DNA of 64,000 bases, from the IMG/VR virus record IMGVR_UViG_3300046779_001841, positions 96,001 to 160,000 of that record. One strand, 5' to 3'. The stretch is from a virus (lineage: Duplodnaviria; Caudoviricetes). Positions within the stretch are counted from its first letter, which is position 1. Each line of letters opens with the position of its first letter. The notes beneath the pieces are model-generated. The model did not search any database and was not told the DNA's origin. It saw only the letters and a program-made list of their open reading frames with translations. This document shows, one piece after another, positions 4,258 to 39,832 of this stretch. Both the position numbers and the translations under genes were made by a program.

Positions 4258-4270
4258 TTCTTTTCTCCTA

Positions 4271-4873: not shown

Positions 4874-4885
4874 TTTTCCTATCCT

Positions 4886-5449
4886 TTAACTTATGGTTTC
4901 CATTTCGCATGGATTATAATACATTATTTCACCATTGTCTTTTTTTCTTAATACTATTTTTATTCTATTCGTTTCTACTCCTAGATACTCATATTTCTCT
5001 TTTATTGTTTCTCCTACACTCCAGCTTATTTCTATCTTCTTTAAACTCTTATCATTCGCTTCTCTATACCTATTATATGTATCTATTTCTCCAGGTAATG
5101 GTATTCTCTTCTTTATTTCTTTTTCACTCACTCGCATTAAATCATATTTCTTGCCTAGCAACACTAGATAACTACTCACTCCTATTTTATCATACTTCTC
5201 TTCACTCGATCTTATTAATAGTCCCTTTCCTTTTCTATTTACTCGCACTGGTTGTATCTCATGATAACCTTCATTCATTATATATTTTTCTACCAACATA
5301 TCTGTATGTTCTCTATATAACCTTTTCCCTTCTGCTCCTAAATACATCTCTATTTCTTTTTCTGTTAATTCACCCACTAGACCATCTGATACATTCTCTA
5401 TTGACATCAGTCCCATAGACCTTCTTATCATATTTACTAATTCTACCAT
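4886..5449 (-). CDS. hypothetical protein, paralog of 4271..4873
   Basis: shared E.E.E.Y.G..G, PV and RIP..GE.D motifs. Confidence 0.65.
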   Translation of the reverse strand: MVELVNMIRRSMGLMSIENVSDGLVGELTEKEIEMYLGAEGKRLYREHTDMLVEKYIMNEGYHEIQPVRVNRKGKGLLIRSSEEKYDKIGVSSYLVLLGKKYDLMRVSEKEIKKRIPLPGEIDTYNRYREANDKSLKKIEISWSVGETIKEKYEYLGVETNRIKIVLRKKDNGEIMYYNPCEMETIS

Positions 5450-5973
5450 TTTAATCCATTCAATCCATCAATTTCTATTTCATACTTTGTTTCATCACAA
5501 CACACTCTTACCCACTTGCCACATTCCAATCCTAATTTACTCTTGATCAAATCTTTTACTCTTGTTACCATTCCTTTTGGTCTAAATTCTTCATCTAGCT
5601 TTCCACTTTCAATTTTACCATTAATGTAAATCTTGCCAGTGTTCTTATCTCTTAACAATCCTTGCATAGTTGGATGATACTCAATATGATCTTCTACTAT
5701 CTTGTCTTGATTTTCACCTTTACTACTTTGCAATAATGATGTTCTCAATCCTTTTCTTCCAAAGGTTTCACCTACTATTGCATCATGCACATCATTCATG
5801 TTTGCCTTTAATCCAGACTTATTTACTAAAGACACTGCAACATCTAATGATACCTTGTCTAAAAAGTTATCTAGTCTTTCTAAATCTTTTACACAATCTG
5901 CTTTATAGTCATTATCTAATCTTACTACTAAAACATTATTGGTGGCTTTGTCTTTTAATCTTGCTACGATCAT
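5443..5973 (-). CDS. hypothetical protein, paralog of 6660..7184
   Basis: shared D..DA..G...GR.GL.TS..QS and E.HP...G motifs; behind a 49-bp element. Confidence 0.75.
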   Translation of the reverse strand: MIVARLKDKATNNVLVVRLDNDYKADCVKDLERLDNFLDKVSLDVAVSLVNKSGLKANMNDVHDAIVGETFGRKGLRTSLLQSSKGENQDKIVEDHIEYHPTMQGLLRDKNTGKIYINGKIESGKLDEEFRPKGMVTRVKDLIKSKLGLECGKWVRVCCDETKYEIEIDGLNGLKW

Positions 5974-6006
5974 CTTTATTTTCCTTTTTTTGAAAAATGG
6001 TTTCTT

Positions 6007-6055
6007 GTCATTCCTGACATATAGATAACACTTGCCATTATGCTATCTTTGCAAC
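6007..6055 (-). promoter_or_regulatory. 49-bp conserved promoter/operator element
   Basis: GTTGCAAAG..AGC-N8-AAGTGTTAT-N4-ATGTC...AATGAC consensus on the minus strand. Confidence 0.8.
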
Positions 6056-6070
6056 CAATCTAAAAAAAAT

Positions 6071-6316
6071 TATAGTTTCATTTTCGATCTCATTTTTTCC
6101 CAATACAAAAAATCCTAGAAATCACTTTTTTAGAAAGTCAAAAAGAAAAAACCTTTTAAAAGTCGCTTAACTTTTTGATCTTAACTATGGTTTCATTTTC
6201 GATCTCATTTTTTCCCAATATAAAAAATTCTAGGAATCACTTTTCTGGATTTCCAAAAAGAAAAAACCTTTTAAAAGTCGCTTAAATTTTTGCCTTAAAC
6301 TATAGTTTCATTTTCA
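6071..6316. repeat. 115-bp tandem repeat, two full units and one partial; origin-like locus
   Basis: TAT(A/G)GTTTCATTTTC begins at 6071, 6186 and 6301; units share GATCTCATTTTTTCCCAATA and CCTTTTAAAAGTCGCTTAA. Confidence 0.9.
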
Positions 6317-6417
6317 GGATGCCATTTTCAATACGCTTTCAATATGGCTTTTTTGGCCTAGTATCTTTAAAAGCAGTCTTTTATCGAGCATTTCTACAAT
6401 AGAGAAATCGCACCTTG

Positions 6418-6660
6418 TTAAACAGACAAGTTTTGAAATTTGAAGAAATGATTGAGATAAGAAATTTGATTTGGATTGAGATTAGAATTTTTAAGCATGG
6501 TGCAGGTTTCAACCAAAGAAAGAAAATCTTTATTCATAAGATTTAAGATCAAGTGATTAAAGATCTTGAGATCATCATCATGCTTAAAAGTAAAGAAATG
6601 AGAAAAGTCGTTATTGGTATAAGTGAAGCCAGCTAGATAAACAAACATAGAAACACACAC
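6418..6660 (-). CDS. hypothetical protein
   Basis: 80-aa ORF abutting 6660..7184. Confidence 0.5.
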   Translation of the reverse strand: MCVSMFVYLAGFTYTNNDFSHFFTFKHDDDLKIFNHLILNLMNKDFLSLVETCTMLKNSNLNPNQISYLNHFFKFQNLSV

Positions 6661-7184
6661 TAGACAATTTGGTAGGTATCAAGATTTTCAAGTTTATAGG
6701 TTCTGATTTTATCTTTCTCAAACTTGGCAACTTTAGAGATCATGTTTTTAAGTTGAACAACAACACCACTATTCACTGGTTTTTTAATTTCTGGATTTGG
6801 ATCTTTTTCTAAAATGGTTTCTTCAAGAAGAAGACCAGTGCAATAGAAGTCACCAGATTTAACAGAAACCTTAACACCAGCAATACTAGGATGATTTTCA
6901 TAGATACTATTTTTATTTGTATCTTCAAGTAAGGAAGATTGGAAGCTGGTAATTAAACCTGTTCTACCATGTTTAGTGCCTGTTAAAGCATCTTCACAAT
7001 CTTGAAGTGTGCAAGAAATATTATGTTGTGTTGCTAGATCAAGAACTTGATCTGGAGTAAAAGATTGTGCTTTGGCAAGATCATTTTCAATAATGGTCTT
7101 GTAATCAAAACCAAATTGAATTTTTACTTGAACCTTGTCTTTAGAAGAACCTGTTTTAGTAGTAGTAAATAATGCGGTAGTCAT
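6660..7184 (-). CDS. hypothetical protein, paralog of 5443..5973
   Basis: AAGGA RBS, 49-bp element upstream, shared motifs with the paralog. Confidence 0.8.
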   Translation of the reverse strand: MTTALFTTTKTGSSKDKVQVKIQFGFDYKTIIENDLAKAQSFTPDQVLDLATQHNISCTLQDCEDALTGTKHGRTGLITSFQSSLLEDTNKNSIYENHPSIAGVKVSVKSGDFYCTGLLLEETILEKDPNPEIKKPVNSGVVVQLKNMISKVAKFEKDKIRTYKLENLDTYQIV

Positions 7185-7217
7185 AGGTTTTTTTCCTTTT
7201 TTTGAATTTGGGTTTTA

Positions 7218-7266
7218 GTCATTACTGACATATAGATAACACTTGTCGAGTTGCTTTCTTTGCACC
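7218..7266 (-). promoter_or_regulatory. 49-bp element (GTGCAA variant)
   Basis: matches consensus. Confidence 0.8.
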
Positions 7267-7278
7267 AGAAAGCAAATA

Positions 7279-8802
7279 TTATTCAATATCTCTAATCTTC
7301 AAACCATTTGAGATATATGGTAGATGATCTAACTTTTTAACATTCTTATCAAACATCTTTTGAAATGCTTTGGCAATATCATTTGGATCAATAATGCTTT
7401 CTAAATCTAAGGTAGTGTTTTTATCAAAAGTGTTTTGATTAGATACTTGATTTTGATCATCATTAGCTTGATCATCACTATCTTGATCATCTTGATCATC
7501 ATCTTGATCATCATCATCTTGATCATCATCATCTTGATCATCATCACTGTTACTTGGATCTTGATCATCTTGATCATCATCATCTTGATCATCACTATCT
7601 TGATCATCACTATCTTGATCATCACTATCTTGATCATCATCTTGATCATCATCATCTTGATCATCATCTTGATCATCACTATCTTGATCATTATCATCTT
7701 GATCATCACTATCTTGATCATCATCTTGATCATCATCATCTTGATCATCATCTTGATCATCATCACTGTTACTTGGATCTTGATCATCTTGATCATCATC
7801 ACCACCTTTACCACCATTACAATCATCATTATCATCTTGGTTATCTTGATCTTGATCATCTTGTGGTGGATTATCTTTTGGTGGATTATCTTGTGGTGGA
7901 TTATCTTTTGGTTTATCTGCAGGCAATTCTAAAGTCATTAAGATTTGCATAGCAATAGTTAAAGGTAGATGTACAGTCTTTAAGATTTCTTTATCAAGAT
8001 CAGTTTTCTTTTTAAAAGTAGTATATTCTTTAATAGAAACTTGTAATTGTTTCCAAAGGTCTTTAACAGATAAAGCACATTCCCAAAGTCTAGGATAAAG
8101 AGTAGCATATTCATTAAAAACTCTAGCTTGAGATTTGGATTTGTGATCTTTACCTAAATCTCTAATCATGAGAGCAATAGCATTAGCAGGATTTTTACCC
8201 ATATCACCAGAAAGTCTTGATTTTGCTTCTAAATCATTCCAAACCCATTCTTGAATGGTATGAAATCTAACTGCACTTTCTGGATAGAGTTTAGACATCA
8301 TTTTTTCAAGTCTAATATCTGCACAAACATTAGCCCAAAGACCAAGAACTTTGAACAAGTTAAATTTCTTTTCTGTAAAATCTTTGAATACAGGAATAAT
8401 CTTTTGAGCAGTTTCACCAGTTAAAGGTGATCCAGCCATGTCACAAATAATGTGTCCAACTTCATGAGAACCACCACCAAGACCAACTGCTCTATCAATA
8501 GAAACAATTTGACTAGCTTCAACAGAAGGCAAGATCAATTTTACTTTATTACCACCACTCATTCTTTTAATATTAGCATGGTAATTTTCAAAAGTTTGAG
8601 AAAGATCACAATTTTTTAAATCATTTTGTGAATAGTAAAATCTTGAAACCATGTGACTAAGAGAAAGCACTGGAAAAAAAGCACCCACACCAAAAGTAGT
8701 ACCAGATCTAACAATTTCTACATTTTTTGTATCACACAATGCTTGAAAAGCACCTCTACCCATATCAAGAGTATCTACTTTATATTTTTGAATAGCAACC
8801 AT
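7279..8802 (-). CDS. HEXXH metallopeptidase-like protein with long Asp/Gln linker, resembling the N-terminal half of CobT-like VWA partners
   Basis: SHEVGH, then NVCADIRLE (cf. N..ED.RIE), then an acidic tract; start reset to ATG 8802 after AAAGGA RBS. Confidence 0.65.
   Translation of the reverse strand: MVAIQKYKVDTLDMGRGAFQALCDTKNVEIVRSGTTFGVGAFFPVLSLSHMVSRFYYSQNDLKNCDLSQTFENYHANIKRMSGGNKVKLILPSVEASQIVSIDRAVGLGGGSHEVGHIICDMAGSPLTGETAQKIIPVFKDFTEKKFNLFKVLGLWANVCADIRLEKMMSKLYPESAVRFHTIQEWVWNDLEAKSRLSGDMGKNPANAIALMIRDLGKDHKSKSQARVFNEYATLYPRLWECALSVKDLWKQLQVSIKEYTTFKKKTDLDKEILKTVHLPLTIAMQILMTLELPADKPKDNPPQDNPPKDNPPQDDQDQDNQDDNDDCNGGKGGDDDQDDQDPSNSDDDQDDDQDDDDQDDDQDSDDQDDNDQDSDDQDDDQDDDDQDDDQDSDDQDSDDQDSDDQDDDDQDDQDPSNSDDDQDDDDQDDDDQDDDQDDQDSDDQANDDQNQVSNQNTFDKNTTLDLESIIDPNDIAKAFQKMFDKNVKKLDHLPYISNGLKIRDIE
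7446..7912. repeat. coding low-complexity D/Q repeat (GATCAT/CATCTT units) and PKDNP/PQDNP repeats
   Basis: imperfect 3- to 15-bp tandem units that keep several frames open. Confidence 0.9.
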
Positions 8803-8824
8803 TTGGTTCGTCCTTTGTTTTGAA

Positions 8825-8873
8825 GTCATTATTGACAAATATATAACACTTATGCTTAAGCTATCTTTGCAAC
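8825..8873 (-). promoter_or_regulatory. 49-bp element
   Basis: matches consensus. Confidence 0.8.
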
Positions 8874-8902
8874 CAACATCAAAAAAACTTTTTTTAACAT
8901 TC

Positions 8903-8951
8903 GTTGCAAAGATAGCAACTCGATAAATGTTTATATCTTGTCTTAAACATA
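8903..8951 (+). promoter_or_regulatory. 49-bp element, degenerate 3' half
   Basis: GTTGCAAAGATAGC intact; AAATGTTTAT in place of AAGTGTTAT; no GTC-N6-GAC. Confidence 0.6.
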
Positions 8952-8974
8952 ACACGATTCAAAGGACGAACCAA

Positions 8975-9781
8975 ATGCAAGACTTTAACAAAGAAATCAA
9001 AAACACCATTAAACAAGAAATGTTGTCTTTATTAGAAACAGTGTCACCAATCAAGAGTAGTGATTTTAAAAATCAAGTCTTAGAAAGACTTGGTTTAACA
9101 AGAGATCAATTTGGATTTGAAAATTCTGGTGCATCTAAACTTGAAAAGTTTATTAGTAATGAGTTTTGGAAATTAAAACAAGAAGGTAAAGTAGAGCAAG
9201 ATGGTTCCACTTGGATTTTTGTAAATCCTGGTGTTCAAAATCCTGGTGTTCAAAATCCAGTGGTTCAAAATATGATTACATATATAGAAGAAGATCAAGA
9301 AGATGATGAAGATGAAAATCAAAAACCTGTAGTGAATATTGCAGACCTGGTTAATCCAGCATTAAGCAATAAATTACTTGCTTGTGATGGATATAGAAAT
9401 TCTTTAATAGAAAACACACCATGCTTTGGAATGTTTGATAAAACACAATGTCATGGTTGTATGCTGGCTTTCTGGTGCAGTCCATTTACTGGTGAAAAGA
9501 AAGCAGAAAAGAAAGCAGAAAGACAAGCTAAAAAACAAGTCAAGACTGCTAAAGAAGTTCTTTTAGAAAAATATGCAGATAAAAAAGAAACATTAGAAAA
9601 CTTATTGTCATTGATCAATCATGCAGTGAAAATCCCCAACAACAGCACTAATCAAATCAAATGTTTTTTTGATGCACAAACAACAATCAATCCACAAGAA
9701 GATTGTATGTTTGTAAAAAACTTTGGTGTGGTCTCTATGAAAGTCTTTACTGAATTAAAAGATGCTGGTCTTGTTAAATGA
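8975..9781 (+). CDS. Mrr_N-like winged-helix protein with 4-Cys motif
   Basis: start reset to 8975 (RBS); N-terminal wHTH-like pattern; NPGVQ x3; PCFG.F...QC.GC.L..WC. Confidence 0.55.
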   Translation: MQDFNKEIKNTIKQEMLSLLETVSPIKSSDFKNQVLERLGLTRDQFGFENSGASKLEKFISNEFWKLKQEGKVEQDGSTWIFVNPGVQNPGVQNPVVQNMITYIEEDQEDDEDENQKPVVNIADLVNPALSNKLLACDGYRNSLIENTPCFGMFDKTQCHGCMLAFWCSPFTGEKKAEKKAERQAKKQVKTAKEVLLEKYADKKETLENLLSLINHAVKIPNNSTNQIKCFFDAQTTINPQEDCMFVKNFGVVSMKVFTELKDAGLVK

Positions 9782-9797
9782 AAAATTTTTTTCATTC

Positions 9798-9846
9798 GTT
9801 GCAAAGGTAGCAAATCGTCAAGTGTTATAAGAATGTCGATAACGAC
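9798..9846 (+). promoter_or_regulatory. 49-bp element
   Basis: matches consensus. Confidence 0.8.
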
Positions 9847-9871
9847 TAACCCTAAAAAAAGGAAAAATCAA

Positions 9872-10894
9872 ATGGCAGTATCAAGAACTCCAGTTTTAAA
9901 TGTAAATGGCTTTAACAAATCTTTCAGTGGTATCACTGCTCAAGTCAATCCTATCACTGATATTGAATTAAAGAAAGCTAATGCTTTTGCACCAGCTATT
10001 AAGCACTATGTACCTACAACAGATAGATGGGTTCAACTTGCAGTCATGACTGCTTTAAAGTCAAAAAAACATTTGTATGTGCATGGTAAAGCTGGTTCTG
10101 GTAAAGATGCTTTATTTCAACAAGTAGCAAATCAATATAGAATACCATTCATCAATCTATCTTTCAAAGAAGGTATTGATGTTAATGAGTGGATTGTAAG
10201 AAGAGAAATAAAAGCAGAAGCTGGTGGTTTCTCAACCAAAGTTGAAGAAGGTGTCTTGTTAAAAGCAATTAAAGGTTTTCAAACTCAAGATGGTAGTTTA
10301 ATTCCATACATGATTTTGATCAGTGATATGGATAGAGCATTGCCAAGTCAATTAGAAATCTTAAGACAAGCCTTACAAGAAGGTACAAGTGCATACTTGA
10401 TCAATCCTATTGATGGTGAACCTATCAATGTATTACAAGGTACTTTGTTTGTAATGACTGGTAACAGTGCTTTAGATGGTGATCTTAGAGGAAACATGGT
10501 ATCAAATAGACTTGATGCAAGTATCTTGAACAGATTGGTCTGTATTAGAGCAACCAATCCAACTGATGCTTTCTTTGTGAAAATCCTAGCTAATGAGTTT
10601 CCTACCTTAACACAAGATCAATGCCAGTTGTTAATCACTTGCATGAATGCAACTAGCAAGATGGCAGAAGAACTTGCACTACCTATTGAAATTTCAATTA
10701 GAACTACCAAGGCTTGGGCAAGACTTGCTATTGATAGTTTAGATTGTGGTTTAGCTAAAAACTTTAAACAAGCTATCCAATTTGGTTTTGATGGTGTGAT
10801 TGATGGTTTCTTTAGCAATCCTGCTCAAGCAGAAAGCATTAGAGGTGCAATAGATAATATTGTAGGTGGTAGTGCAGAAGCAGTTAATTCTTAA
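9872..10894 (+). CDS. MoxR/CobS-like AAA+ ATPase
   Basis: Walker A GKAGSGK, atypical Walker B LISDMDRA, LDASILNRL Arg-finger, SIR sensor II; start reset to 9872. Confidence 0.85.
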   Translation: MAVSRTPVLNVNGFNKSFSGITAQVNPITDIELKKANAFAPAIKHYVPTTDRWVQLAVMTALKSKKHLYVHGKAGSGKDALFQQVANQYRIPFINLSFKEGIDVNEWIVRREIKAEAGGFSTKVEEGVLLKAIKGFQTQDGSLIPYMILISDMDRALPSQLEILRQALQEGTSAYLINPIDGEPINVLQGTLFVMTGNSALDGDLRGNMVSNRLDASILNRLVCIRATNPTDAFFVKILANEFPTLTQDQCQLLITCMNATSKMAEELALPIEISIRTTKAWARLAIDSLDCGLAKNFKQAIQFGFDGVIDGFFSNPAQAESIRGAIDNIVGGSAEAVNS

Positions 10895-10908
10895 AAATCT
10901 TTTTCATG

Positions 10909-10957
10909 ATTGCAAAGACTGCTTAAGCATAAGTGTTATAAGAATGTCGATAACGAC
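10909..10957 (+). promoter_or_regulatory. 49-bp element
   Basis: matches consensus. Confidence 0.8.
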
Positions 10958-10980
10958 TTAACAAAAAAAAGGAAAATAAA

Positions 10981-11835
10981 ATGGCTTTTGATTATCAAGC
11001 ATTTAGAGAAGATTTAAAAAAATATGCAGTCATTAAGACCAATGATCTAAGAAGATTGCTAATTGATGAACAAAACAAAAAAACATTCACAAAGAATGGT
11101 TTGTCATTAAATGGTAGAGGTCTTGTGAATACTGCTATTGCAGTTGCCAATTCAAGAGAAAATCTTGATAGGTATAAAACATTCCAACAAAAACAAACCA
11201 CTTTGGCAGGTTTTTCATTTGCATTTGATTTTTCAGCATCTATGAATAGTGCTATTGAAGAACAAAGAGGTTTACCAATTCCAGCCAGTGCTAATAAAAT
11301 CTCAAGATATAGAGCATTAGTGTATGCTATGGAAAGTCTATTGAATGTAATCACTCCATTTGGAATAAAATCCTATATAGGTGGTGTGTTATTTGAAAAT
11401 AGTAGAGAACATAGAAATCAATTCACTACCAGCACTGATAGCATTCAAATCAATTTAAAAGTCATTAAAAAAGACACTGAAAGATTTGATATTCAAAAAG
11501 CATTTACAGGAACTCAACCTAACAATAATACCTATCTTTGTGCTTATGCTCAAGGTGCCATAGAAATGGCAAAAAGAATTAAGGGTGTGGATAAAAGAAT
11601 TGCTATCTATATGACTGATGGTGATGATGGTGCTTCTATGCCTTATCTCAAATCTATTCAAGACCAAGCCAAAGCACAAGGTATTGATCTTATTTGTTGC
11701 ACTTTAAAATGTGGTGTTTCTCAAAAAACTATTGATCTATTAAAAAATCAAGGTGTAAATCTTATTTGCATTAATGATCCATTAGATTTTATAAGTGCTT
11801 TAACTGATGTTCTCAAAAACATTTATCTTGCTTAA
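10981..11835 (+). CDS. VWA-domain protein (CobT C-terminal-like)
   Basis: MIDAS DFSAS and MTDG; follows the AAA gene. Confidence 0.8.
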   Translation: MAFDYQAFREDLKKYAVIKTNDLRRLLIDEQNKKTFTKNGLSLNGRGLVNTAIAVANSRENLDRYKTFQQKQTTLAGFSFAFDFSASMNSAIEEQRGLPIPASANKISRYRALVYAMESLLNVITPFGIKSYIGGVLFENSREHRNQFTTSTDSIQINLKVIKKDTERFDIQKAFTGTQPNNNTYLCAYAQGAIEMAKRIKGVDKRIAIYMTDGDDGASMPYLKSIQDQAKAQGIDLICCTLKCGVSQKTIDLLKNQGVNLICINDPLDFISALTDVLKNIYLA

Positions 11836-11850
11836 AGGAATTAAAAAACC

Positions 11851-12708
11851 ATGACTTCTTTCTCATTCAAAACATTTTTAAAAGTTGCCAATAAAGATGA
11901 ATTAAAAGCACTCGCAGAAAATTCATCACACATAAATGACTTGTGTAGCAAACTCAATCTCAAGTATAGTCAAGTAAAATACTTATACAGGAAAATAGGT
12001 ATAGACTTGCACTTTTCTAAAAAAGAAAAAAACCTTGTTGCTAATCCATCTCTGGATATACCTAAAGAAACTCTTGTATCAATGGCTGGAAAACCTTTAC
12101 AAAGAGTTTCTTTAGATCTTAAACTCAAACCAAAGAAAGTTAAAGAACTTTTTGCTAAACATGGTTTACCTATACCTGTTAAAGCAAATAATTTTGCTAC
12201 CAGTTGTCCTATCTCAAAAGAAGATCTGGAATACCAGTACTTAACTTTAAATCAATCTTTATCTGCACTTGGTGAAAAATATGATGTCAGTAAGCAACTT
12301 GTTGCCAACTGGTGTGTTTTCTATAACATACCTGTTAGAAATGCTGGTTTCTTTTCACCAGTACATTCAAACTCTAATATCTATAAGCATCCTATCTGGA
12401 ACTTAACAAATGAAGAATTTCTTTTACAAGTAAAACAATATTCTTGTATAAGTGAATTTTGTAAGTCACAAGATATTTCTGCTAATTTGTTTTACAGATT
12501 TTTAGATGAAAGAAAAATACCATCACCATTTCCTAGAAATAAACTTACTACACTCACAAAAGAATATTTGCTGGATCTTTACTTGAATAAAGATATGACT
12601 TTAAAGCAAATAGCAGAACATGAAAATTGCCATTTACAAACTATCAATAGGTATTTCAAAGCATTTGACATTAATGCTGGTCTTAAAAGAAAATTACAAA
12701 AAATTTAA
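11851..12708 (+). CDS. multi-HTH DNA-binding protein
   Basis: repeated units such as YLTLNQSLSALGEKYDVSKQLVANW and YLNKDMTLKQIAEHENCHLQTINRY; no nuclease motif seen. Confidence 0.6.
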   Translation: MTSFSFKTFLKVANKDELKALAENSSHINDLCSKLNLKYSQVKYLYRKIGIDLHFSKKEKNLVANPSLDIPKETLVSMAGKPLQRVSLDLKLKPKKVKELFAKHGLPIPVKANNFATSCPISKEDLEYQYLTLNQSLSALGEKYDVSKQLVANWCVFYNIPVRNAGFFSPVHSNSNIYKHPIWNLTNEEFLLQVKQYSCISEFCKSQDISANLFYRFLDERKIPSPFPRNKLTTLTKEYLLDLYLNKDMTLKQIAEHENCHLQTINRYFKAFDINAGLKRKLQKI

Positions 12709-12712
12709 GTAT

Positions 12713-12761
12713 GTTGCAAAGGTGGCTTAATGACAAGTGTTATATATATGTCGATGATGAC
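12713..12761 (+). promoter_or_regulatory. 49-bp element
   Basis: matches consensus. Confidence 0.8.
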
Positions 12762-12784
12762 AAATAAACCACTTGGAGCTAAAA

Positions 12785-13126
12785 ATGAAAAGCACTATTC
12801 AAATTAAAGACTATACCTGCACTAGAACTCTTATGAATGGTAATGCAACTTATAGTTGCACTTGTCCTGCATGGTCTAGTGCTTTACAAAGAGGTGTGCC
12901 TTGTAAGCATATTCTTTCCATTCTTTTCACTGGTTGTGATGTTGCTAAATGGGAACACATAAGAATGACTTTTGCAAAGCAATTTAATATGAATAATAGC
13001 AAAGCAGAAGTCATTCTTGGTAAAGGTTTGAGATATAATGAACCAGCAGTCTTGGAATGGTATGTAGAATACCAAAGATCCCAAATAAAAGAAATTCCCA
13101 AAGAATTTGCTATTGGTCAAATTTAG
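12785..13126 (+). CDS. SWIM zinc-finger protein
   Basis: CTCP...PCKH (CxC...CxH). Confidence 0.75.
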   Translation: MKSTIQIKDYTCTRTLMNGNATYSCTCPAWSSALQRGVPCKHILSILFTGCDVAKWEHIRMTFAKQFNMNNSKAEVILGKGLRYNEPAVLEWYVEYQRSQIKEIPKEFAIGQI

Positions 13127-13907: not shown

Positions 13908-13970
13908 CTTCTAATAGAAATCATACTCTTAAATAGAAACATAAATAAAATATTAAATTTTTTTACTTTC

Positions 13971-14019
13971 GTTGCAATAAAAGCACCATGACAAGTGTTA
14001 TAGATATGTCAATAATGAC
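13971..14019 (+). promoter_or_regulatory. 49-bp element
   Basis: matches consensus. Confidence 0.8.
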
Positions 14020-14037
14020 AATCAAAGGATCATAGAT

Positions 14038-15542: not shown

Positions 15543-15554
15543 TCTTCTCTCTCT

Positions 15555-16552: not shown

Positions 16553-16634
16553 CTTTTTTCTCCTATGAAATTTAAACTCATCTATATAAACATTATAAAA
16601 ATAATATAAGACTTCATATAAGAAAGGACTTATT

Positions 16635-17033
16635 ATGAAAAACCAAATTCTTGACACCATGCGACTTGCTTTTGTTATTAAACTTCTTGCCAAAGATATG
16701 TTTTTTACTCTTGCTCCACTTCCAGATTTTATCCAAACCAAAAACTCATCTTCGGGTGAATTAGACATCGATCTTCTTAAAGGCACACCTAAAGACTATA
16801 CCTACAAATTCTTTATTGCTAAAGATAGTAGCGAACTCGGTCAAGGCAATTTCTATGCGATTGAAGTTCTTCCCAATAGCAATCGTGTTCTAGTTACTCC
16901 ACATACATTGTATGAAGATACAGATGAAATTCTTCTTAATGATGACTGCATCATCTATAATGATGAAAATAAATTTGGTTGCAGTGAAGGTCTTTTTGAA
17001 AGTCTTAAATCTTTTTTTGAAAAAAAACAATAG
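16635..17033 (+). CDS. hypothetical protein
   Basis: AAAGGA RBS, 132 aa. Confidence 0.65.
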   Translation: MKNQILDTMRLAFVIKLLAKDMFFTLAPLPDFIQTKNSSSGELDIDLLKGTPKDYTYKFFIAKDSSELGQGNFYAIEVLPNSNRVLVTPHTLYEDTDEILLNDDCIIYNDENKFGCSEGLFESLKSFFEKKQ

Positions 17034-17035
17034 TC

Positions 17036-17084
17036 GTTGCAAAGGTAGCTTATCCTTAAGTGTTATATGTATGTCGATAATGAC
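17036..17084 (+). promoter_or_regulatory. 49-bp element
   Basis: matches consensus. Confidence 0.8.
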
Positions 17085-17106
17085 TAACACTTAAAGGATT
17101 TGAAAA

Positions 17107-17649
17107 ATGTTCAAATTTATGAATGACCATGACAATGCTCCATCTTTCAACACTGCTTCTTTTGAATTTGACAAAGATGTTGATTATTCTAAGGAAACAG
17201 GTCTTTCCACACATATCAATCTTTGTCTTACACATGATAACACTCCTGTTGTATTACTCAACTCCTTTGGTTTGAGTTATAAATATGGCAAGTCTTTTTC
17301 TATTTCTATTGTAGAAGGTGAACTTTCTAAACATCTTACAAAACAAATTGAACCAGATGGTCAATCTAATTATCTCTTTTTAGATAGTCCTAATGGTAAA
17401 ATTAAAATCACTGATGGTTTTAAAGTTTGTTATATCACTTGGACTATCTCTAATGATCAAGTTCAAATCACTACTTCTGAAGATGATAGTGTTATCATTG
17501 ATTTTCACAAAGGTGTTATTGATCCTAATATCTATAAATTTATTGACAATTTACTTGGTTTATTAGAAACCATGCCTGAACCTTTAAAACCAGGTATGTG
17601 GAAAAAGATTTCTAAACTTAGAGATACTTTTGGTCTTGTTAAACAATAA
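17107..17649 (+). CDS. hypothetical protein, paralog of 14038..14598
   Basis: shared NAP, L..(Y/F)GL.YK, IV(D/E)G, ITD.F and GVID motifs. Confidence 0.8.
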   Translation: MFKFMNDHDNAPSFNTASFEFDKDVDYSKETGLSTHINLCLTHDNTPVVLLNSFGLSYKYGKSFSISIVEGELSKHLTKQIEPDGQSNYLFLDSPNGKIKITDGFKVCYITWTISNDQVQITTSEDDSVIIDFHKGVIDPNIYKFIDNLLGLLETMPEPLKPGMWKKISKLRDTFGLVKQ

Positions 17650-17840: not shown

Positions 17841-18134
17841 ATGATAGAAAAACAAATAGACCATAATGAAATTATATCTATATGTGCAGGTGCTGGTTAC
17901 ATAGCTACTCAAATTGCACACTCATACCAATTCCAGTATCCTAAAATCTTCTCATTCACCAGTGCTTTGTTTGTTCTCTGGATTATCTATGATCCTGTTA
18001 TTCCTACCACTTCGGAATGGATACTCGCAGGTTTAACAGGTTTCTTTAGCAATCTCATAGTTGAGTTTATCCATAAACCTAACAACACTATCATATCTAA
18101 GCTAGATGCAATCTTAATGGAATTAAAAAAATGA
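17841..18134 (+). CDS. small multi-pass membrane protein
   Basis: 2-3 hydrophobic segments; ATGA overlap with the cyclase. Confidence 0.65.
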   Translation: MIEKQIDHNEIISICAGAGYIATQIAHSYQFQYPKIFSFTSALFVLWIIYDPVIPTTSEWILAGLTGFFSNLIVEFIHKPNNTIISKLDAILMELKK

Positions 18135-18916
18135 GATTAGAAGAAAAAACACTAGCTATCGTTCTGCTTGACATCATAGGTAGTACTAAATTCGTACAGA
18201 TCGCTGGTGATCTTAAAGCTACCATGCTTTTCCAAGTTCATGATAAAATGGTTCGTGATCTCATCATTCGCTTCTCTGGTCAAGAAATTGATAGATCTGA
18301 TGGCTTTCTTATCTATTTTGAAACCATCCAAGATGCAGTCAATTTTGGTCTTTACTACCAAATGAATGTTCCAGATAGAACTAAACTTGCCTGCAGGATT
18401 GGTATTCATTGGTCTAAAATTATTATCGTTCATCAAGATATGAAATATATACAAGGTGGTGCTAAACGATTAGAACTTGAAGGTGTTGGCAAAAACATTA
18501 CTGCTCGAATTATGTCTATCTGTGGTAAAGGTCAAGTCTTATTATCCAAAGATGCTATGGATGAATTTAAAAAACAAGGTGTCAATAGTTTCACACCTAA
18601 ATCTACTAAACACCTTTTCGTAGGTGCTTATCAATTTAAAGGTCTTAAACAATATATAGGTGTCTATGCTCTAGGTCTGGATAAAGATGACTTAAAAACT
18701 CCACCAGATAATGACAAAGCGAAACGAATGGGTGGTCTTAATGTTTTATCTATGAATGAAAAAGATGTCGCTTTCTACAACTATATTATCCAAATCTTAG
18801 GCTGGATCTTTATTATCTGTTTTACTATAATATTCTTAGTCTTGTTTTATCTGTTCTTTGACCCTGTTCTTAGAGAACAGATTTTAATTCAAATTGGTAT
18901 TCTCAAACCTACTTAA
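18131..18916 (+). CDS. class III (adenylate/guanylate-type) nucleotide cyclase with C-terminal TM helix
   Basis: LLDIIGST, IDRSDGFLIYF, RIGIH and G..KN..ARIMS...GQVLLS motifs. Confidence 0.85.
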   Translation: MRLEEKTLAIVLLDIIGSTKFVQIAGDLKATMLFQVHDKMVRDLIIRFSGQEIDRSDGFLIYFETIQDAVNFGLYYQMNVPDRTKLACRIGIHWSKIIIVHQDMKYIQGGAKRLELEGVGKNITARIMSICGKGQVLLSKDAMDEFKKQGVNSFTPKSTKHLFVGAYQFKGLKQYIGVYALGLDKDDLKTPPDNDKAKRMGGLNVLSMNEKDVAFYNYIIQILGWIFIICFTIIFLVLFYLFFDPVLREQILIQIGILKPT

Positions 18917-20355: not shown

Positions 20356-20403
20356 CCTGTTTGTTTTTTGAGATACACAAACAGATACTATATAAAATAA
20401 AAA

Positions 20404-20643
20404 TTAAAGTTGCTTTACATACACTTGGTGTGCCATAGACCAATAATCTGCTTCATCTTCTGTTTCTACTTCTACAAATATATCTATGTCATTAAAGATA
20501 TTCCAATCATGTGGCTTTTCATTTCCATGTGCATAGAAAAATGGATTGTTTGGGTTATCTTTATTCTCTACAACAGTGTTGTATGAAACACTGCCTTCAC
20601 TAAGATGAAGTTCATGAGATACTTTATGAATTAAGTTTTTCAT
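20404..20643 (-). CDS. hypothetical protein
   Basis: 79 aa, downstream of the deacetylase. Confidence 0.6.
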   Translation of the reverse strand: MKNLIHKVSHELHLSEGSVSYNTVVENKDNPNNPFFYAHGNEKPHDWNIFNDIDIFVEVETEDEADYWSMAHQVYVKQL

Positions 20644-20648
20644 TTGGA

Positions 20649-21506
20649 TTAACCTTTCTTGGAAATCTTGTTAAAGCTATTATAGGTTGCATAGTGCATA
20701 TCTGTTAAGACTGCTGGTGTAATAGTGGCTGATAAATAACCACCTGCAAGAACCCAACAAGCCTTGATATTGTTTTCTTTGCACCAGTTTGCTACCATTT
20801 CTTCTCTTAATTCTAAGGTTTCTTTTGAGATACCATTAAGACTTGGGTCCATACCTGCATTGTGCATGATGAAATCAACATCACAAGATTTAAGATGATC
20901 TAAACAATCTTGCACCTTTGAAAGATAGGATTGACTATCTCTATATGAGTGAAAATCTGTATGATGAATATTTTTGGTTGGCTTCCATTCATCTAAATAG
21001 CTGGTTGATAAATCTGCAATAGGAATATCTAAACCACCTAGAATATCAAATGTACCACCACCAAAATGTGCATCTACATCAAGCACACCAACTCTTTTAC
21101 CATTTTGTTTAGCAAGGATTGCTCCCATAGCTAAACCATTCACTTGGCAAAATCCCATACCATAGTTTTTACCTGCATGGTGCAAACCACTTGATAAAGA
21201 ACCTGCATATCCATTTTCCAATGCAGATAACACTGCATCTCTTACACCACCATTTGAGTGTCTAATGGATTTCAGTAAATCACTATTCCACCTGGAACCT
21301 AATGCACTCCAATCCAATGTTAAGTCAAAAAGACTTGCTACATAGTCATGGTCTAAAAATGCTCCAAGTTCTTCTCTATTCACTGGCTTTGGTTCTACTA
21401 AGAAACCACCATTGGCAAGAATTTTCTTTGCCAACCATTCACTTTTCCTTACTGTTTCTAAGGAATTTGATGTTGAAATGTAATCTGGTGAAAAATAAGT
21501 ATTCAT
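20649..21506 (-). CDS. histone deacetylase-family (HDAC/AcuC-like) zinc hydrolase
   Basis: GLHHA...GFC, DVDAHFGGGT, AGMDP and LAGGY motifs. Confidence 0.9.
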   Translation of the reverse strand: MNTYFSPDYISTSNSLETVRKSEWLAKKILANGGFLVEPKPVNREELGAFLDHDYVASLFDLTLDWSALGSRWNSDLLKSIRHSNGGVRDAVLSALENGYAGSLSSGLHHAGKNYGMGFCQVNGLAMGAILAKQNGKRVGVLDVDAHFGGGTFDILGGLDIPIADLSTSYLDEWKPTKNIHHTDFHSYRDSQSYLSKVQDCLDHLKSCDVDFIMHNAGMDPSLNGISKETLELREEMVANWCKENNIKACWVLAGGYLSATITPAVLTDMHYATYNSFNKISKKG

Positions 21507-21530
21507 AGGTTTTTTCCTTTTTTGGTTTTA

Positions 21531-21579
21531 GTCATCATTGACATAATGATAACACTTGTCGATTTGCTATCTTTGCAAC
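21531..21579 (-). promoter_or_regulatory. 49-bp element
   Basis: matches consensus. Confidence 0.8.
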
Positions 21580-21594
21580 AGACTGCAAAGATTT

Positions 21595-21897
21595 TTATAA
21601 TTGCCAGTAAGCATTTTCTGTTTTAATTGCTCTGTTTATGATCCTTGCACAAGCACCTGCATCAGTAAATTCTCTATCATTTACAGAATCAAACATTCCC
21701 ATGCAGTCATCATTGCATTGGACTTTAAGATATGTACCATATTCATCTTTTTCACAAGACACAACAATATCAATCTTACTTTTGATGAGTGCAGGGTGGT
21801 TTATCTTAATGCTCTTATTTGCAATAACAAAACCAAAGTCAATGTTCTTTGCATTAAGGTTGAGTTTAAGAGAATTTAACATTTCTAAATGTTTCAT
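21595..21897 (-). CDS. ~100-aa protein, paralog family B
   Basis: near-identical to 22243 and 22633 (VIANK, SCE.DE.G.YLKV..NDDC.G.F). Confidence 0.85.
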   Translation of the reverse strand: MKHLEMLNSLKLNLNAKNIDFGFVIANKSIKINHPALIKSKIDIVVSCEKDEYGTYLKVQCNDDCMGMFDSVNDREFTDAGACARIINRAIKTENAYWQL

Positions 21898-21919
21898 TTG
21901 ATTTCCTTTGTTTTAGGTT

Positions 21920-21968
21920 TCTATCAATCACATATCTATAACACTTATGGTTAAGCGACCTTTGCAAC
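21920..21968 (-). promoter_or_regulatory. 49-bp element lacking the GTC-N6-GAC dyad
   Basis: TTGCAA and AAGTGTTAT conserved. Confidence 0.7.
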
Positions 21969-21989
21969 CAAATGAAAATATTTTTTGAT

Positions 21990-22262
21990 TTAGTGCAAAT
22001 CACTTGGAACACACAATCTTAATGCTTTAAGCAATTCTGGATATTGTGTCTGTTCTTTTACATGACAATAAAGCTGGTAGTTTGCACCTACCAATTCACT
22101 GTCACTCACTTGTTTTAGATCTAAGCATAAAATCTCAGGTACAATCTCTAAGATGATTGTTCTGTATGTCAATCTACCATTTGACTGCACCAAGTAGTTT
22201 TCTACTTTTTCTAAGGTTTCTTGTTTTACATTGTCTAACATATTAGCACCAGGCACTTTCAT
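21990..22262 (-). CDS. hypothetical protein
   Basis: 90 aa; overlaps the paralog B gene. Confidence 0.55.
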   Translation of the reverse strand: MKVPGANMLDNVKQETLEKVENYLVQSNGRLTYRTIILEIVPEILCLDLKQVSDSELVGANYQLYCHVKEQTQYPELLKALRLCVPSDLH

Positions 22263-22539
22263 TTTGGATTGCTCTGTTTATCTTTTTTGCCAATTTAACT
22301 GCACTGGTATATTCAGTATCACTATTGGTTTCAAATAAGCCCAAACAATCATCATTTGTATGCACTTTCAAATACACACCACACTCATCTTTTTCACAAG
22401 ACACTTTGATTTCAATAGAACTGTTTGCAAGTGCTTCATTCTTGATTTCAATCATCTTATTTGCAATCACATTTTTGAACTCAATGTTCTTTGCATTAAG
22501 GTTGAGTTTAAGAGCATTAAGCATTTCTAACTTTGTCAT
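22243..22539 (-). CDS. paralog family B
   Basis: same motifs as 21595. Confidence 0.85.
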   Translation of the reverse strand: MTKLEMLNALKLNLNAKNIEFKNVIANKMIEIKNEALANSSIEIKVSCEKDECGVYLKVHTNDDCLGLFETNSDTEYTSAVKLAKKINRAIQNESAWC

Positions 22540-22568
22540 AGGTTTTTTCCTTGATCTTGGTTTTGTTT

Positions 22569-22617
22569 GTCATCATTGACATAATGATAACACTTGTCAT
22601 TGAGCGGCCTTTGCAAC
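22569..22617 (-). promoter_or_regulatory. 49-bp element
   Basis: matches consensus. Confidence 0.8.
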
Positions 22618-22632
22618 CATTTTGAAAAATTT

Positions 22633-22935
22633 TTATAATTGCCAATAAAAACTTTCTGTTTTGATTGCACTCTTTATTTTTCTTGCACAAGCTACTACAT
22701 CTGTAAATTCTCTATCATTTACAGAATCAAACAATCCTAAACAATCATCATTGCATTGGACTTTAAGATAAGTACCATAAGCATCTTGTTCACAAGAGAT
22801 CTCTAATTCAATCTTGCTTTTGGTAAGTGCTAGGTGATTGATCTTGATTTTCTTATTGGCAATCACATGAGTGAAATCAATGTTCTTGCTGGTAAGGTGA
22901 AGTTTGAGATCATTTAACATTTTTATCTTTGACAT
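22633..22935 (-). CDS. paralog family B
   Basis: same motifs as 21595. Confidence 0.85.
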   Translation of the reverse strand: MSKIKMLNDLKLHLTSKNIDFTHVIANKKIKINHLALTKSKIELEISCEQDAYGTYLKVQCNDDCLGLFDSVNDREFTDVVACARKIKSAIKTESFYWQL

Positions 22936-22961
22936 AGGTTTTTTCCTTGTTCTTGGTTTTT

Positions 22962-23010
22962 GTCATTCTCGACATACCTATAACATTTGTCATTAAGCTA
23001 CCTTTGCAAC
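22962..23010 (-). promoter_or_regulatory. 49-bp element
   Basis: matches consensus; back-to-back with 23107. Confidence 0.8.
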
Positions 23011-23106
23011 GACTATGAAAATTTTTTTAAATGTGTTGTTGCAGGAAAAGCAATATCATTGCGGCCGCTTTAGCAATATATATAGTCAAAAACTTTTTTT
23101 AGATTG

Positions 23107-23155
23107 GTTGCAAAGGTTGCTAATCCATAAGTGTTATCATTATGTCAGTAATGAA
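23107..23155 (+). promoter_or_regulatory. 49-bp element
   Basis: matches consensus. Confidence 0.8.
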
Positions 23156-23179
23156 AAGTTTTCTTGAAAGGAAAATAAA

Positions 23180-23404
23180 ATGCAAAACATGAAAAATTTA
23201 TTGATTGCTACTGGTTGGACTTCTTTTGGTGATTGTCATTTTGCCAAAGACACTAAAACCAAAAGACTAGGTTTGGCACTCAGACCAGATGGTTATAAAC
23301 TTTGGGCTGATGATGGTGTTGAAGTGAATAACTTTTACATTGAACCAAAAAGAGATGTTGATCTCATAAATAGAATTTCTGAATACCCCAGAATTTCTGA
23401 ATAA
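23180..23404 (+). CDS. hypothetical protein
   Basis: AAGGA RBS, 74 aa. Confidence 0.7.
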   Translation: MQNMKNLLIATGWTSFGDCHFAKDTKTKRLGLALRPDGYKLWADDGVEVNNFYIEPKRDVDLINRISEYPRISE

Positions 23405-23419
23405 AAAAATTTGCAGTCT

Positions 23420-23468
23420 GTTGCAAAGACTGCAAATCGTCAAGTGTTATAGATATGTCAGTAATGAC
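23420..23468 (+). promoter_or_regulatory. 49-bp element; TTGCAA sits in the loop of a TTGCAGTCT/AGACTGCAA inverted repeat
   Basis: matches consensus. Confidence 0.8.
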
Positions 23469-23496
23469 TAAACCAAAAAAACAAAGGAAACAAAAA

Positions 23497-23850
23497 ATGC
23501 AAACCACTCAAGGACAAAATATGCAAGATTTACTCAATACAGAAACTTGGAATGATGATCAATTATTTCAAGCTACCAAAATGCTTTACACTCACTTAAA
23601 TGAAAGCAAGATTAATTTAAAGTATGGTTGGAAAGCAGGCTCTTGGTATCAAGATTATGAAAATTGTATCAAAACCAAAAATCAAAGATATGATATTGGT
23701 GTCTATGAAAATCATAACATTTGGTTCAAGATTTATGTAAATGATCAACCTGAAGATTTTGAAAGCAATTACAAATGGGAAGATTTAATGAACAATCCAC
23801 AAATTGTTGTTGATGAATTTGTTGCTCTTAAAAGATCTGTTGGTAGATAA
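23497..23850 (+). CDS. hypothetical protein
   Basis: start reset to MQTTQ after AAAGGA. Confidence 0.7.
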   Translation: MQTTQGQNMQDLLNTETWNDDQLFQATKMLYTHLNESKINLKYGWKAGSWYQDYENCIKTKNQRYDIGVYENHNIWFKIYVNDQPEDFESNYKWEDLMNNPQIVVDEFVALKRSVGR

Positions 23851-23859
23851 ATTGCTTCT

Positions 23860-23885
23860 GCAGCAAAGACTGCTCAACCATAAAA
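23860..23885 (+). promoter_or_regulatory. truncated remnant of the 49-bp element
   Basis: GCAGCAAAGACTGCTCAACCATAAA resembles only the 5' half. Confidence 0.45.
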
Positions 23886-23904
23886 CAAAAAAGGAAAAAT
23901 CCAA

Positions 23905-24159
23905 ATGCCAGTTATTCTCTATAATGTAGATGGTTCTAAATCTTTAATCCAACTTTCATCTTTTAAAGATGCTCAAAATATTGTTGGTGGTTTAGTTGAA
24001 CCTGTTTATCTTTCTTCTACTCAACTTCTTCTCTGTAATGAAGAAGGTAGGTTATTAAATCTACCTGCAAATCCTTTTCATACTGATCTTTTTGGTAATC
24101 TCATTCTTATCTCTAATGATGATTTTAGAAAACTACCATATACAAATACAAAGGAATAA
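23905..24159 (+). CDS. DUF3846-like protein
   Basis: Q.IVGG.VE and CNEEG.L.NLP.N motifs. Confidence 0.7.
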   Translation: MPVILYNVDGSKSLIQLSSFKDAQNIVGGLVEPVYLSSTQLLLCNEEGRLLNLPANPFHTDLFGNLILISNDDFRKLPYTNTKE

Positions 24160-24165
24160 TCTACC

Positions 24166-24627
24166 ATGCTTAAAACTCTCAATAAATCTTTTCCTGCTTT
24201 AGCTACTAAAGCTACCATTGAAATCCTACCAATCACTTTGGATAATCTCAATCACTTCTATCAACAAGATTTAAAAACTCTTGCTGAATTTATTGATACT
24301 CCACCTAAACTTTTACTCTATCCTTCTTTTGAGAATGAAAAATATTCTCTTGATGATGCTAATGCTATTCTTTCTGTTTTACTCCAGTCTATTCATCTCA
24401 AATATGAATACTACTTGAATAGCATTAACTCTTTAACTCCTACCCATAATACTTCTTACTTTTCTGACCCTGATGATAATCTTTATCTTCTTGGTGTGAT
24501 TTCTAAAGAACATTTACTCCAACCTGTTTCTCTTTCTCATAATGTCACTAGACTTAATTGTCTTTTTCTTTCTATCATTCCTAATCTCAAACTCTTTTTA
24601 CCTTTAGTTAGGCTCTATAAAATCTAA
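24166..24627 (+). CDS. hypothetical protein (strongly C/T-biased codons)
   Basis: AAGGA RBS, 153 aa. Confidence 0.55.
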   Translation: MLKTLNKSFPALATKATIEILPITLDNLNHFYQQDLKTLAEFIDTPPKLLLYPSFENEKYSLDDANAILSVLLQSIHLKYEYYLNSINSLTPTHNTSYFSDPDDNLYLLGVISKEHLLQPVSLSHNVTRLNCLFLSIIPNLKLFLPLVRLYKI

Positions 24628-39831: not shown

Positions 39832-39832
39832 A

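Follow-up and report, generated by a model that had tools for sequence, protein, structure and literature searches.

Genes behind a repeated promoter-like element of a freshwater tailed phage are almost free of CG dinucleotides

The DNA considered here is a stretch of 64,000 nucleotides (hereafter, the window) spanning positions 96,001–160,000 of a single 316,221-bp virus record, IMGVR_UViG_3300046779_001841, which CheckV rates as complete. Within the window, and over the whole record, the genes that lie behind a repeated promoter-like element are almost purged of the dinucleotide CG (CpG), and they are interleaved with genes that carry it. Positions are those of the window unless they are marked as genome positions.

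The phage genome has a G+C content of 31% and one tRNA. A tail sheath domain, a family-A DNA polymerase and Shine–Dalgarno leaders identify it as a tailed phage. Its origin is a freshwater (lake) metagenome, and near-identical DNA was found in runs of 11 studies. Megablast against GenBank phages gave no match; the nearest DNA polymerase belongs to a 485-kb uncultured phage of 54% GC and was uninformative.

The repeated element

The element is present in 45 copies of ~53 nt each, scoring 37.6–78.7 bits with a position weight matrix (PWM) that was built from 34 strict copies and for which shuffled genomes reach at most −8 bits. Its consensus is TGGTTGCAAAG-rTAGC-N8-AAGTGTTATA-N5-GTCGATAATGAC, and its end lies 10–31 nt from a start codon that is preceded by AAAGGA. 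The copies are spread from 10 kb to 312 kb of the genome, on both strands, among CG-bearing genes.

The final 12 nt of the element form a 4-bp stem with an ATAA loop. At pair 4 of this hairpin, the 34 best copies have A-T (15 copies), G-T (10) or G-C (8), and never A-C; such G-U-tolerant covariation is as would be expected if the stem formed in RNA, at the 5′ end of the message or close to it. The element itself is rich in CG (50 in 2,385 nt, all copies taken together) and often contains TCGA, as part of GTCGAT. Its CGs are found either upstream of the presumed −10 box (in TCGTTGC and the variable spacer), in what would be untranscribed DNA, or in both arms of the stem.

CG content of the element-driven units

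CG was counted per codon phase in 352 genes, called with a simple codon-usage caller made for this analysis, on which all per-gene counts rest. Expectations were derived either from global synonymous codon usage or from the codons of the gene itself. Immediately behind an element are 44 genes (6,952 codons), which contain 0, 0 and 2 CG at codon positions 1–2, 2–3 and 3–1, respectively, against 47.6, 44.9 and 179 expected from global usage and 194 expected at the junctions from own usage. When the genome is walked downstream of each element, one to three CG-free genes are met before CG returns. The full units comprise 63 genes (9,455 codons, ~31.6 kb, 10% of the genome) with four coding CGs in all, three of them at codon junctions, where 250.8 are expected from the genes' own codons. 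For the remaining genes the counts in the three phases are 817, 681 and 917, against 769, 636 and 2268 expected; the comparison computed together with the unit genes gives 916 junction CGs against 2,021. These other genes have 9.4 CG/kb. Over the whole genome the observed/expected ratio (o/e) is 0.34 for CpG and ~1.24 for TG and CA, and 17 CG-free runs longer than 1 kb are observed where 0.7 would be expected.

A C at the third codon position is found in 14.3% of unit-gene codons that precede a non-G codon and in 0.1% (3/2,795) of those that precede a G codon, the corresponding values for other genes being 10.0% and 3.4%; C-ending codons are commoner in the unit genes than in the rest. A preliminary description of this DNA had argued that codon choice alone could not account for the missing CG, and both the junction counts and these frequencies bear it out. 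A generic codon bias of highly expressed genes was likewise rejected, the junction expectation being taken from each gene's own codons.

What is avoided is the CG dinucleotide itself, since all 16 NCGN contexts are lost in the units. A longer word containing CG, which the preliminary description had listed as something to be checked, was not found, and no 2- to 6-mer is depleted in the unit genes comparably to CG; GGCC, CCWGG, GTAC and GANTC are mildly low at most.

The purge covers all three codon phases as well as the short untranslated parts. Leaders after the element hold 2 CG in 959 nt, and the CG-free zone extends from right after the element to ~30 nt past the last stop codon. In 28 of 28 units the first CG past the last stop never comes sooner than 33 nt, and 19% of other genes have a CG within that distance (P about 0.002). 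No consistent intrinsic terminators were found after the units. The six residual CGs of the units lie at −8, −4, +5 and +8 from the first start codon and, in two cases, within second or third genes. The CG-free state follows the promoter class, and neither position nor strand.

A 351-aa gene that lacks the element also has no CG, against 9.6 expected (genome 271396–272454, minus strand, outside the window). Upstream of it is a promoter-like sequence of the TTGACA-N17 type, and a few genes may be CG-free without belonging to the element regulon.

Units and neighbouring genes in the window

The element-driven units of the window are as follows.

5443–6057, minus strand: element 6005–6057 (PWM 68.5 bits) and gene 5443–5973 (176 aa); one CG, at 5967, 5 nt past the start codon.
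6660–7268, minus strand: element 7216–7268 and gene 6660–7184 (174 aa); one CG, at 7175, 8 nt past the start codon.
7279–8875, minus strand: element 8823–8875 and gene 7279–8802 (507 aa, acidic D/Q repeat protein); no coding CG (9 in the relative's orthologue), and one CG at 8809, between the ribosome-binding site and the ATG.
8891–9781, plus strand: degenerate element at ~8891–8945 (AAATGTTTAT variant, under the PWM cut-off) and gene 8975–9781 (268 aa); no coding CG.
9796–10894, plus strand: element 9796–9848 and gene 9872–10894 (MoxR-like AAA ATPase, 340 aa); no CG.
10907–12708, plus strand: element 10907–10959 and genes 10981–11835 and 11851–12708 (helix-turn-helix, HTH, protein); one CG, at 11913.
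12711–13126, plus strand: element 12711–12763 and gene 12785–13126 (SWIM zinc-finger protein); no CG.
13969–14598, plus strand: element 13969–14021 and gene 14038–14598; no CG.
17034–17649, plus strand: element 17034–17086 and gene 17107–17649; no CG (10 in the relative's orthologue).
20404–21581, minus strand: element 21529–21581 and genes 20649–21506 (HDAC-family deacetylase) and 20404–20643; no CG.
21595–23012, minus strand: three nested units with elements 21918–21970, 22567–22619 and 22960–23012 and small paralogous genes 21595–21897, 21990–22262, 22243–22539 and 22633–22935; no coding CG.
23105–24627, plus strand: two units with elements 23105–23157 and 23418–23470 and genes 23180–23404, 23497–23850, 23905–24159 (DUF3846) and 24166–24627; no coding CG.
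35390–35759, minus strand: element 35707–35759 (without the hairpin) and gene 35390–35686; no CG.
37106–39192, minus strand: element 39140–39192 and genes 38800–39120 and 38532–38771, no CG in either; gene 37106–38461 (451 aa), probably in the same unit, has 2 CG against 12.3 expected.
58384–59124, minus strand: element 59072–59124 and genes 58860–59051 and 58384–58803; no CG.
59505–60151, minus strand: element 60099–60151 and gene 59505–60074; no coding CG.
60163–61235, minus strand: element 61183–61235 and genes 60737–61159 and 60163–60705; no CG.

The following genes and gene groups of the window serve as a contrast.

13110–13895, minus strand: interleaved gene without the element, convergent with gene 12785–13126, which overlaps its 3′ end; 8 CG.
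14595–16552, minus strand: three genes that lack the element and have no counterpart in the relative; 15 coding CG.
16602–17033, plus strand: second promoter-like motif (TAATATAAG) at 16602 and gene 16635–17033; 7 CG.
17841–18916, plus strand: genes past unit 17034–17649, where CG is back; 14 CG.

The preliminary description had noted by eye a number of intervals devoid of CG. Counting confirmed zero CG for 7279–8802, 8975–9781, 9872–10894, 10981–11835, 12785–13126, 14038–14598, 17107–17649, 20404–21506, 35390–35686, 38532–39120 and 58384–59051. It also agreed that 21595–22935, 23180–24627 and 59505–61159 are CG-free in their coding parts, the CGs at 21956 and 22605 (inside elements of the nested units), 23438, 60130 and 60151 all being in intergenic promoter elements. 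The same held for the single CG reported for each of 5443–5973, 6418–6660, 6660–7184 and 11851–12708, and for the neighbours said to carry CG normally: 14 in 17841–18916, 8 in 13110–13907, 16 in 14595–16070, 7 in 16635–17033, 18 in 39271–40822 and 10 in 61298–62326.

The TAATATAAG motif is found 22–80 nt upstream of 19 genes whose CG content is normal (8.35/kb). Besides the copy at 16602, it occurs at genome positions 12699, 50489, 94629, 185750, 311528 and others. It marks several unit ends where CG returns, such as those at genome 50489, 185750 and 311528 (all outside the window), and one copy precedes a methyltransferase gene (genome 310232–311506).

Some other features of the window deserve mention. 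In gene 7279–8802, degenerate tandem repeats of 9–15 nt (7405–7905) encode an acidic Asp/Gln-rich tract; they are the cause of an enrichment of TGATCA/GATGAT in the class, and the same repeat region is present in the relative, there with CG. The CG-containing spacer between the first two units holds two tandem copies of a 115-nt sequence, 86% identical (6068–6297); in that spacer no gene was called except a doubtful GTG open reading frame, 6418–6660. A third codon dialect is seen in a run of minus-strand genes at 81–5407, where C occupies only 2–4% of third positions and NCG codons are in excess (17 against 3.1 expected in gene 1756–3315). Finally, a protein of 2,847 aa (24915–33458, minus strand, 84 CG) has no Pfam match and has an orthologue of at least 2,653 aa in a 278-kb scaffold from a relative.

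Comparison with relatives

The relative used above consists of two IMG/VR contigs (195.7 and 146.7 kb) of one phage, with ~79% identity in alignable DNA; its genome is incomplete and covers ~75–305 kb of the record positions. Its early promoters have only the core, AACTTGCAAT-N14-AAGTGTTTAT, without the AAAG-rTAGC module, and the hairpin is seen in one exception only. Twenty-five orthologues of unit genes hold 65 CG in the relative (5.07/kb, vs 7.64/kb in its other genes) and 3 CG here. Among aligned positions where the relative has CG, 1/64 is kept as CG in the unit orthologues and 326/905 in other genes; the sites lost in units have mostly become TG, AG or CA, i.e., synonymous escapes. Further relatives, at the 89% level (the 278-kb scaffold, GROS21) and at 83%, 68% and 43% protein identity, also have CG-bearing orthologues. 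The AAA ATPase gene, for example, has no CG here and 2, 12, 18, 14 and 9 in relatives, and the ligase gene has none here and 7 in the relative.

Because the orthologues in relatives carry CG, the purge is derived in this phage lineage; the comparison with related phages, which the preliminary description had recommended, thus shows it to be lineage-specific. It came about by recoding, almost entirely through synonymous changes. A horizontal origin of the units was rejected, the orthologues being in the same gene order in relatives. UpA is also lower in the unit class than in other genes, with o/e values of 0.70 vs 0.76 here and 0.73 vs 0.82 in the relative; since it is lower in the relative's orthologues too, avoidance of UpA in this class is older than the CG purge.

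Exact-pattern scans for the element in IMG/VR returned single chance matches only, and in scans of metagenome contigs the only real matches were short contigs of a ~95% identical variant. In this variant the full element is present and the units are CG-free too. Over 4,435 nt of units aligned with its contigs (JACCDO) there are 259 differences, one of which creates a CG; outside units, 12 of 88 differences in 2,634 nt make or break one. Transitions at sites where they would make or break CG (Y before G or R after C) number 0/576 in units, as compared to 74/3,489 in other contexts of the units and 8/412 at such sites outside units. This indicates that the purge is maintained by continuing purifying selection and is not a past event, in keeping with the earlier proposal that selection acts on one expression class.

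A purely mutational origin seems very improbable. In very highly transcribed genes the sense strand, being exposed, could suffer deamination of its cytosine or 5-methylcytosine, by which CG would be eroded to TG without selection, with boundaries that coincide with transcription units, as they seem to here; and on the unit sense strand TG is more enriched than CA (o/e for TG 1.49 vs 1.27, for CA 1.32 vs 1.23). A TG excess is, however, also what synonymous escape from NNC|G predicts. Deamination is an unlikely cause, as is decay of 5-methylcytosine, because the unit genes use more C-ending codons, not fewer, and avoid them only before G. Moreover, an o/e of 0.01 would require CG to be lost >30 times faster than elsewhere in the genome, nothing points to CpG methylation, and relatives with the same promoters and gene order show no purge. 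At the 5% divergence of the variant, CG-creating transitions are 0 vs ~12 expected.

Restriction pressure and cytosine methylation

Both phages avoid certain sites throughout. Counts here (316 kb) and in the relative (226 kb) are 0 and 0 for ACGT, 1 and 1 for GCWGC, and 0 and 0 for GAGCTC. Surviving CGs are found in TCG/CGA contexts in 89% of cases in both phages (base composition would predict 57%), and contexts that have neither a 5′ T nor a 3′ A are avoided across the genome; TCGA stands at ~0.4 of expectation here. The preliminary description had objected that restriction avoidance would act on the whole genome, and the objection holds, because genome-wide avoidance of this kind is present separately from the purge.

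A more specific form of the restriction hypothesis would be that the early units are kept uncut until ligase and anti-restriction functions have been made, and have shed every CG site recognized by the enzymes of the host population. The pressure on CG-centred sites is indeed extreme (ACGT 0, CGCG 8, CCGG 5, besides the values just given for TCGA and for TCG/CGA contexts), and an NAD-dependent DNA ligase and a DenV-like repair glycosylase are among the class members. There is also precedent for motif avoidance limited to the first-acting DNA. In T5, restriction sites are excluded from the first-entering DNA, the pre-early or first-step-transfer region. The leading region of Autographiviridae avoids Type I restriction–modification motifs (PMC12455610), and this motif-free region is the nearest published parallel in logic. 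In both systems, as here, a word is excluded from the part that acts before counter-defences and is kept in most of the genome. There, however, a complete restriction site is avoided, over a single contiguous end that enters first, and the target is DNA, whereas here a bare dinucleotide is missing from 45 dispersed units whose promoters keep CG. The loss of all 16 NCGN contexts is more than any finite set of sites can explain; even those most tolerated in the genome (ACGA/TCGT and GCGA/TCGC) are purged in the units, while non-CG sites are not. The promoters are CG-rich and often contain TCGA, and with units scattered over the whole genome, the remainder would be cut anyway. We consider that DNA-level restriction avoidance has only a small chance of being the cause.

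Other sites differ between the two phages. From the relative to the present phage, the counts go from 0 to 24 for GCGC, from 0 to 8 for CGCG, from 1 to 91 for CCWGG and from 6 to 37 for GGCC, while CCGG falls from 38 to 5. Five C5-cytosine methyltransferases are encoded here, and a PF00145 profile search of the relative's contigs gave no match; two of the five lie in regions syntenic with the relative and have no counterpart there. Their best PDB matches are HaeIII- and HhaI-like rather than M.MpeI, a result that is not decisive, as only catalytic-domain halves were matched. This is most simply read as a gain of site-specific methylases (GCGC-, GGCC- and CCWGG-like), followed by relaxed avoidance of the corresponding sites. 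Blanket CpG modification or methylation of the genome is unlikely, judging from ACGT still being 0 and CCGG having dropped.

These observations also bear on a mechanism put forward in the preliminary description, whereby packaged DNA modified at CG would hinder the polymerase, so that CG is avoided in genes transcribed from the incoming DNA, whereas later genes have newly made, unmodified copies as their template. The modification capacity and the purge did arise in one and the same lineage. On the other hand, the methylases look site-specific, ACGT and CCGG being avoided even as GCGC, GGCC and CCWGG are relaxed; the likely methylated sites GGCC and CCWGG are not clearly avoided in the units; and we found no Tet_JBP domain, and hence no TET/JBP enzyme, in the phage genome. 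CG abounds in the element and is tolerated over the first ~45 nt past the presumed start, and the bulk CG density exceeds that of the relative (9.4 vs 7.6/kb). The proposal is weakened by these data, and we now regard it as improbable.

Gene content and the presumed early timing

Most products of the unit genes are orphans. The recognisable ones are the MoxR-like AAA ATPase, the HTH protein, the SWIM protein, the HDAC-family enzyme and the DUF3846 protein, to which the genome adds the NAD-dependent DNA ligase (609 aa, no CG in 1,830 nt), the DenV-like glycosylase and SspB-like proteins. Such a mix would fit a class devoted to early takeover and repair. The preliminary description had called the class probably early: the distinctness of the promoter class stood up, and the gene content and the separate TAATATAAG class fit, whereas the earliness itself is something that we infer from these features.

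Domain searches of the phage genome detected no Rpb1 or Rpb2 (multisubunit RNA polymerase). A search for sigma factors gave a single sub-threshold sigma-like match, at genome position 276204, and the sole instance of the DxDGD motif was a DVDGD in a 1,488-aa protein. No Rfam family was matched in the window.

A lineage-specific protein of 315 aa (14595–15542, minus strand) was considered as a CG-cutting nuclease and rejected as evidence, its Pfam match to R.HinP1I being weak and below threshold (E = 0.0075); it has few homologues, and a single-sequence AlphaFold model was unusable (predicted local distance difference test, pLDDT, 38). No informative domains were found in the lineage-specific leader-bearing and coiled-coil proteins. 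Six small genes at 53825–56955, with common 5′ ends and repeated AAAGAAGCCAAACGGCTT segments, are absent from the relative and yielded no domains.

What the ban on CG may act upon

A ban that holds for one presumed temporal class and spares DNA a few bases away is most easily explained by a target that exists only at that time, that is, the early transcripts or the act of transcribing them. A reader acting on RNA is favoured by the two-base word, by the tolerance of CG in the promoter, the stem and the start-codon region, by the 5′ stem-loop gained together with the purge, and by the G-U-tolerant covariation of that stem.

The best explanation, which we hold tentatively and at slightly less than an even chance, is a time-limited activity directed at CpG in early RNA. 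The element-driven units would be the first genes expressed, with functions in host takeover, repair and anti-defence, and it is their RNA that would be constrained. As infection begins, an activity would be at work by which single-stranded RNA is cleaved, modified or bound at CpG. Messages of this early time window would have to lack accessible CpG, and later genes would be transcribed after the activity has ended. CpG would survive where RNA is not made (upstream of the presumed −10 box) and where it is shielded: by pairing in the stem of the 5′-terminal hairpin or, up to 8 nt from the first start codon, by the initiating ribosome or by closeness to the 5′ end.

The activity might be a host defence enzyme, later neutralised by an early phage product, or the phage's own injected shut-off factor, by which host messages would be destroyed and early phage messages spared. 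We lean slightly towards the phage-borne factor, because the purge, the new promoter module and the 5′ stem-loop arose together, and did so in this lineage only. A CG-directed activity at the RNA level had been one of the mechanisms suggested in the preliminary description; it fits best, though none of the proteins scanned was recognised as its effector.

Several points weigh against this explanation. CG is its own reverse complement, so that strand asymmetry cannot separate selection on RNA from selection on DNA. The sequencing runs found to hold the phage sequence include no RNA run. Among ~70 phage proteins scanned, we recognised no RNase-like domain and no CpG-specific RNase, RNA modifier or reader, and to our knowledge no such protein is known in bacteria or phages. 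Units often continue into CG-bearing downstream genes without a visible terminator. Finally, four of the six residual CGs lie within 8 nt of the first start codon, but this clustering was noticed post hoc and concerns six sites, and a promoter-proximal exemption at the level of transcription would explain it equally well.

Such an exemption is a feature of another possibility, a transcription-level shut-off like that of T4 Alc. An early factor would make the polymerase terminate or arrest at CG on unmodified DNA, silencing the host and letting only CG-free units be read through, and would later be inactivated, or the polymerase altered. The same unit boundaries and class specificity are predicted, the tolerance of CG only in the first ~45 nt past the presumed start, which take in the hairpin and the region of the first start codon, would fit a factor acting only on mature elongation complexes, and the lineage is the one in which the new promoter module arose. 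A homologue of such a factor was not found, though, and the G-U-tolerant covariation of the hairpin points to an RNA feature; moreover, we know of no precedent for transcription termination keyed to a dinucleotide. We judge this mechanism unlikely, and the DNA-modification, restriction and mutational hypotheses weaker still.

Known systems offer partial parallels to an activity directed at CpG in early RNA. The zinc-finger antiviral protein (ZAP) drives CpG suppression in vertebrate RNA viruses. There too, viral transcripts lose CpG to a reader of CpG in RNA, but that system is eukaryotic, and its effect genome-wide and partial, whereas here the host is bacterial and the loss is near-total in one gene class. 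In bacteria, mRNAs that lack ACA escape MazF and GCU-poor mRNAs escape MqsR. These transcripts, like those proposed here, are spared by lacking the short word of an endoribonuclease; the words are 3–7 nt long and the enzymes are known, while we are aware of no CG-specific RNA enzyme and of no report of a phage gene class recoded in this way. CmdT, of the CmdTAC defence, ADP-ribosylates GA dinucleotides in single-stranded mRNA (doi 10.1101/2024.02.24.581662). This anti-phage enzyme, like the proposed activity, recognises a dinucleotide where the mRNA is accessible, and it leaves double-stranded RNA alone. It differs in that its word is GA and it is triggered late, by a capsid protein, whereas the word here is CG and the timing would be early. 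We know of no phage purged of GA.

Implications

Our literature search turned up no account of a phage CpG purge confined to one gene class, nor any of phage CpG depletion in connection with early genes. Avoidance of a target word is a standard way to infer the defences that a virus faces, and a signal that is near-absolute, class-limited, recent enough to be missing from sister phages and still under selection points to a specific CG-directed activity with a narrow window in infection and no prior description. The contrast between lineages makes gene-content comparison a route to that activity, with natural CG-free and CG-containing versions of the same genes at hand.

It is possible, if somewhat short of an even prospect, that bacteria or phages possess a CpG-reading RNA activity confined to the first minutes of infection, be it a prokaryotic equivalent of ZAP or an enzyme related to CmdT-type mRNA modifiers or BECR-type RNases but specific for CG, which this lineage has answered, or exploits, by recoding ~63 early genes and capping their messages with a 5′ stem-loop. 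Should it act on RNA, antiviral or host shut-off mechanisms keyed to a dinucleotide would gain a new class, and a CpG-specific RNA enzyme might become available as a tool.

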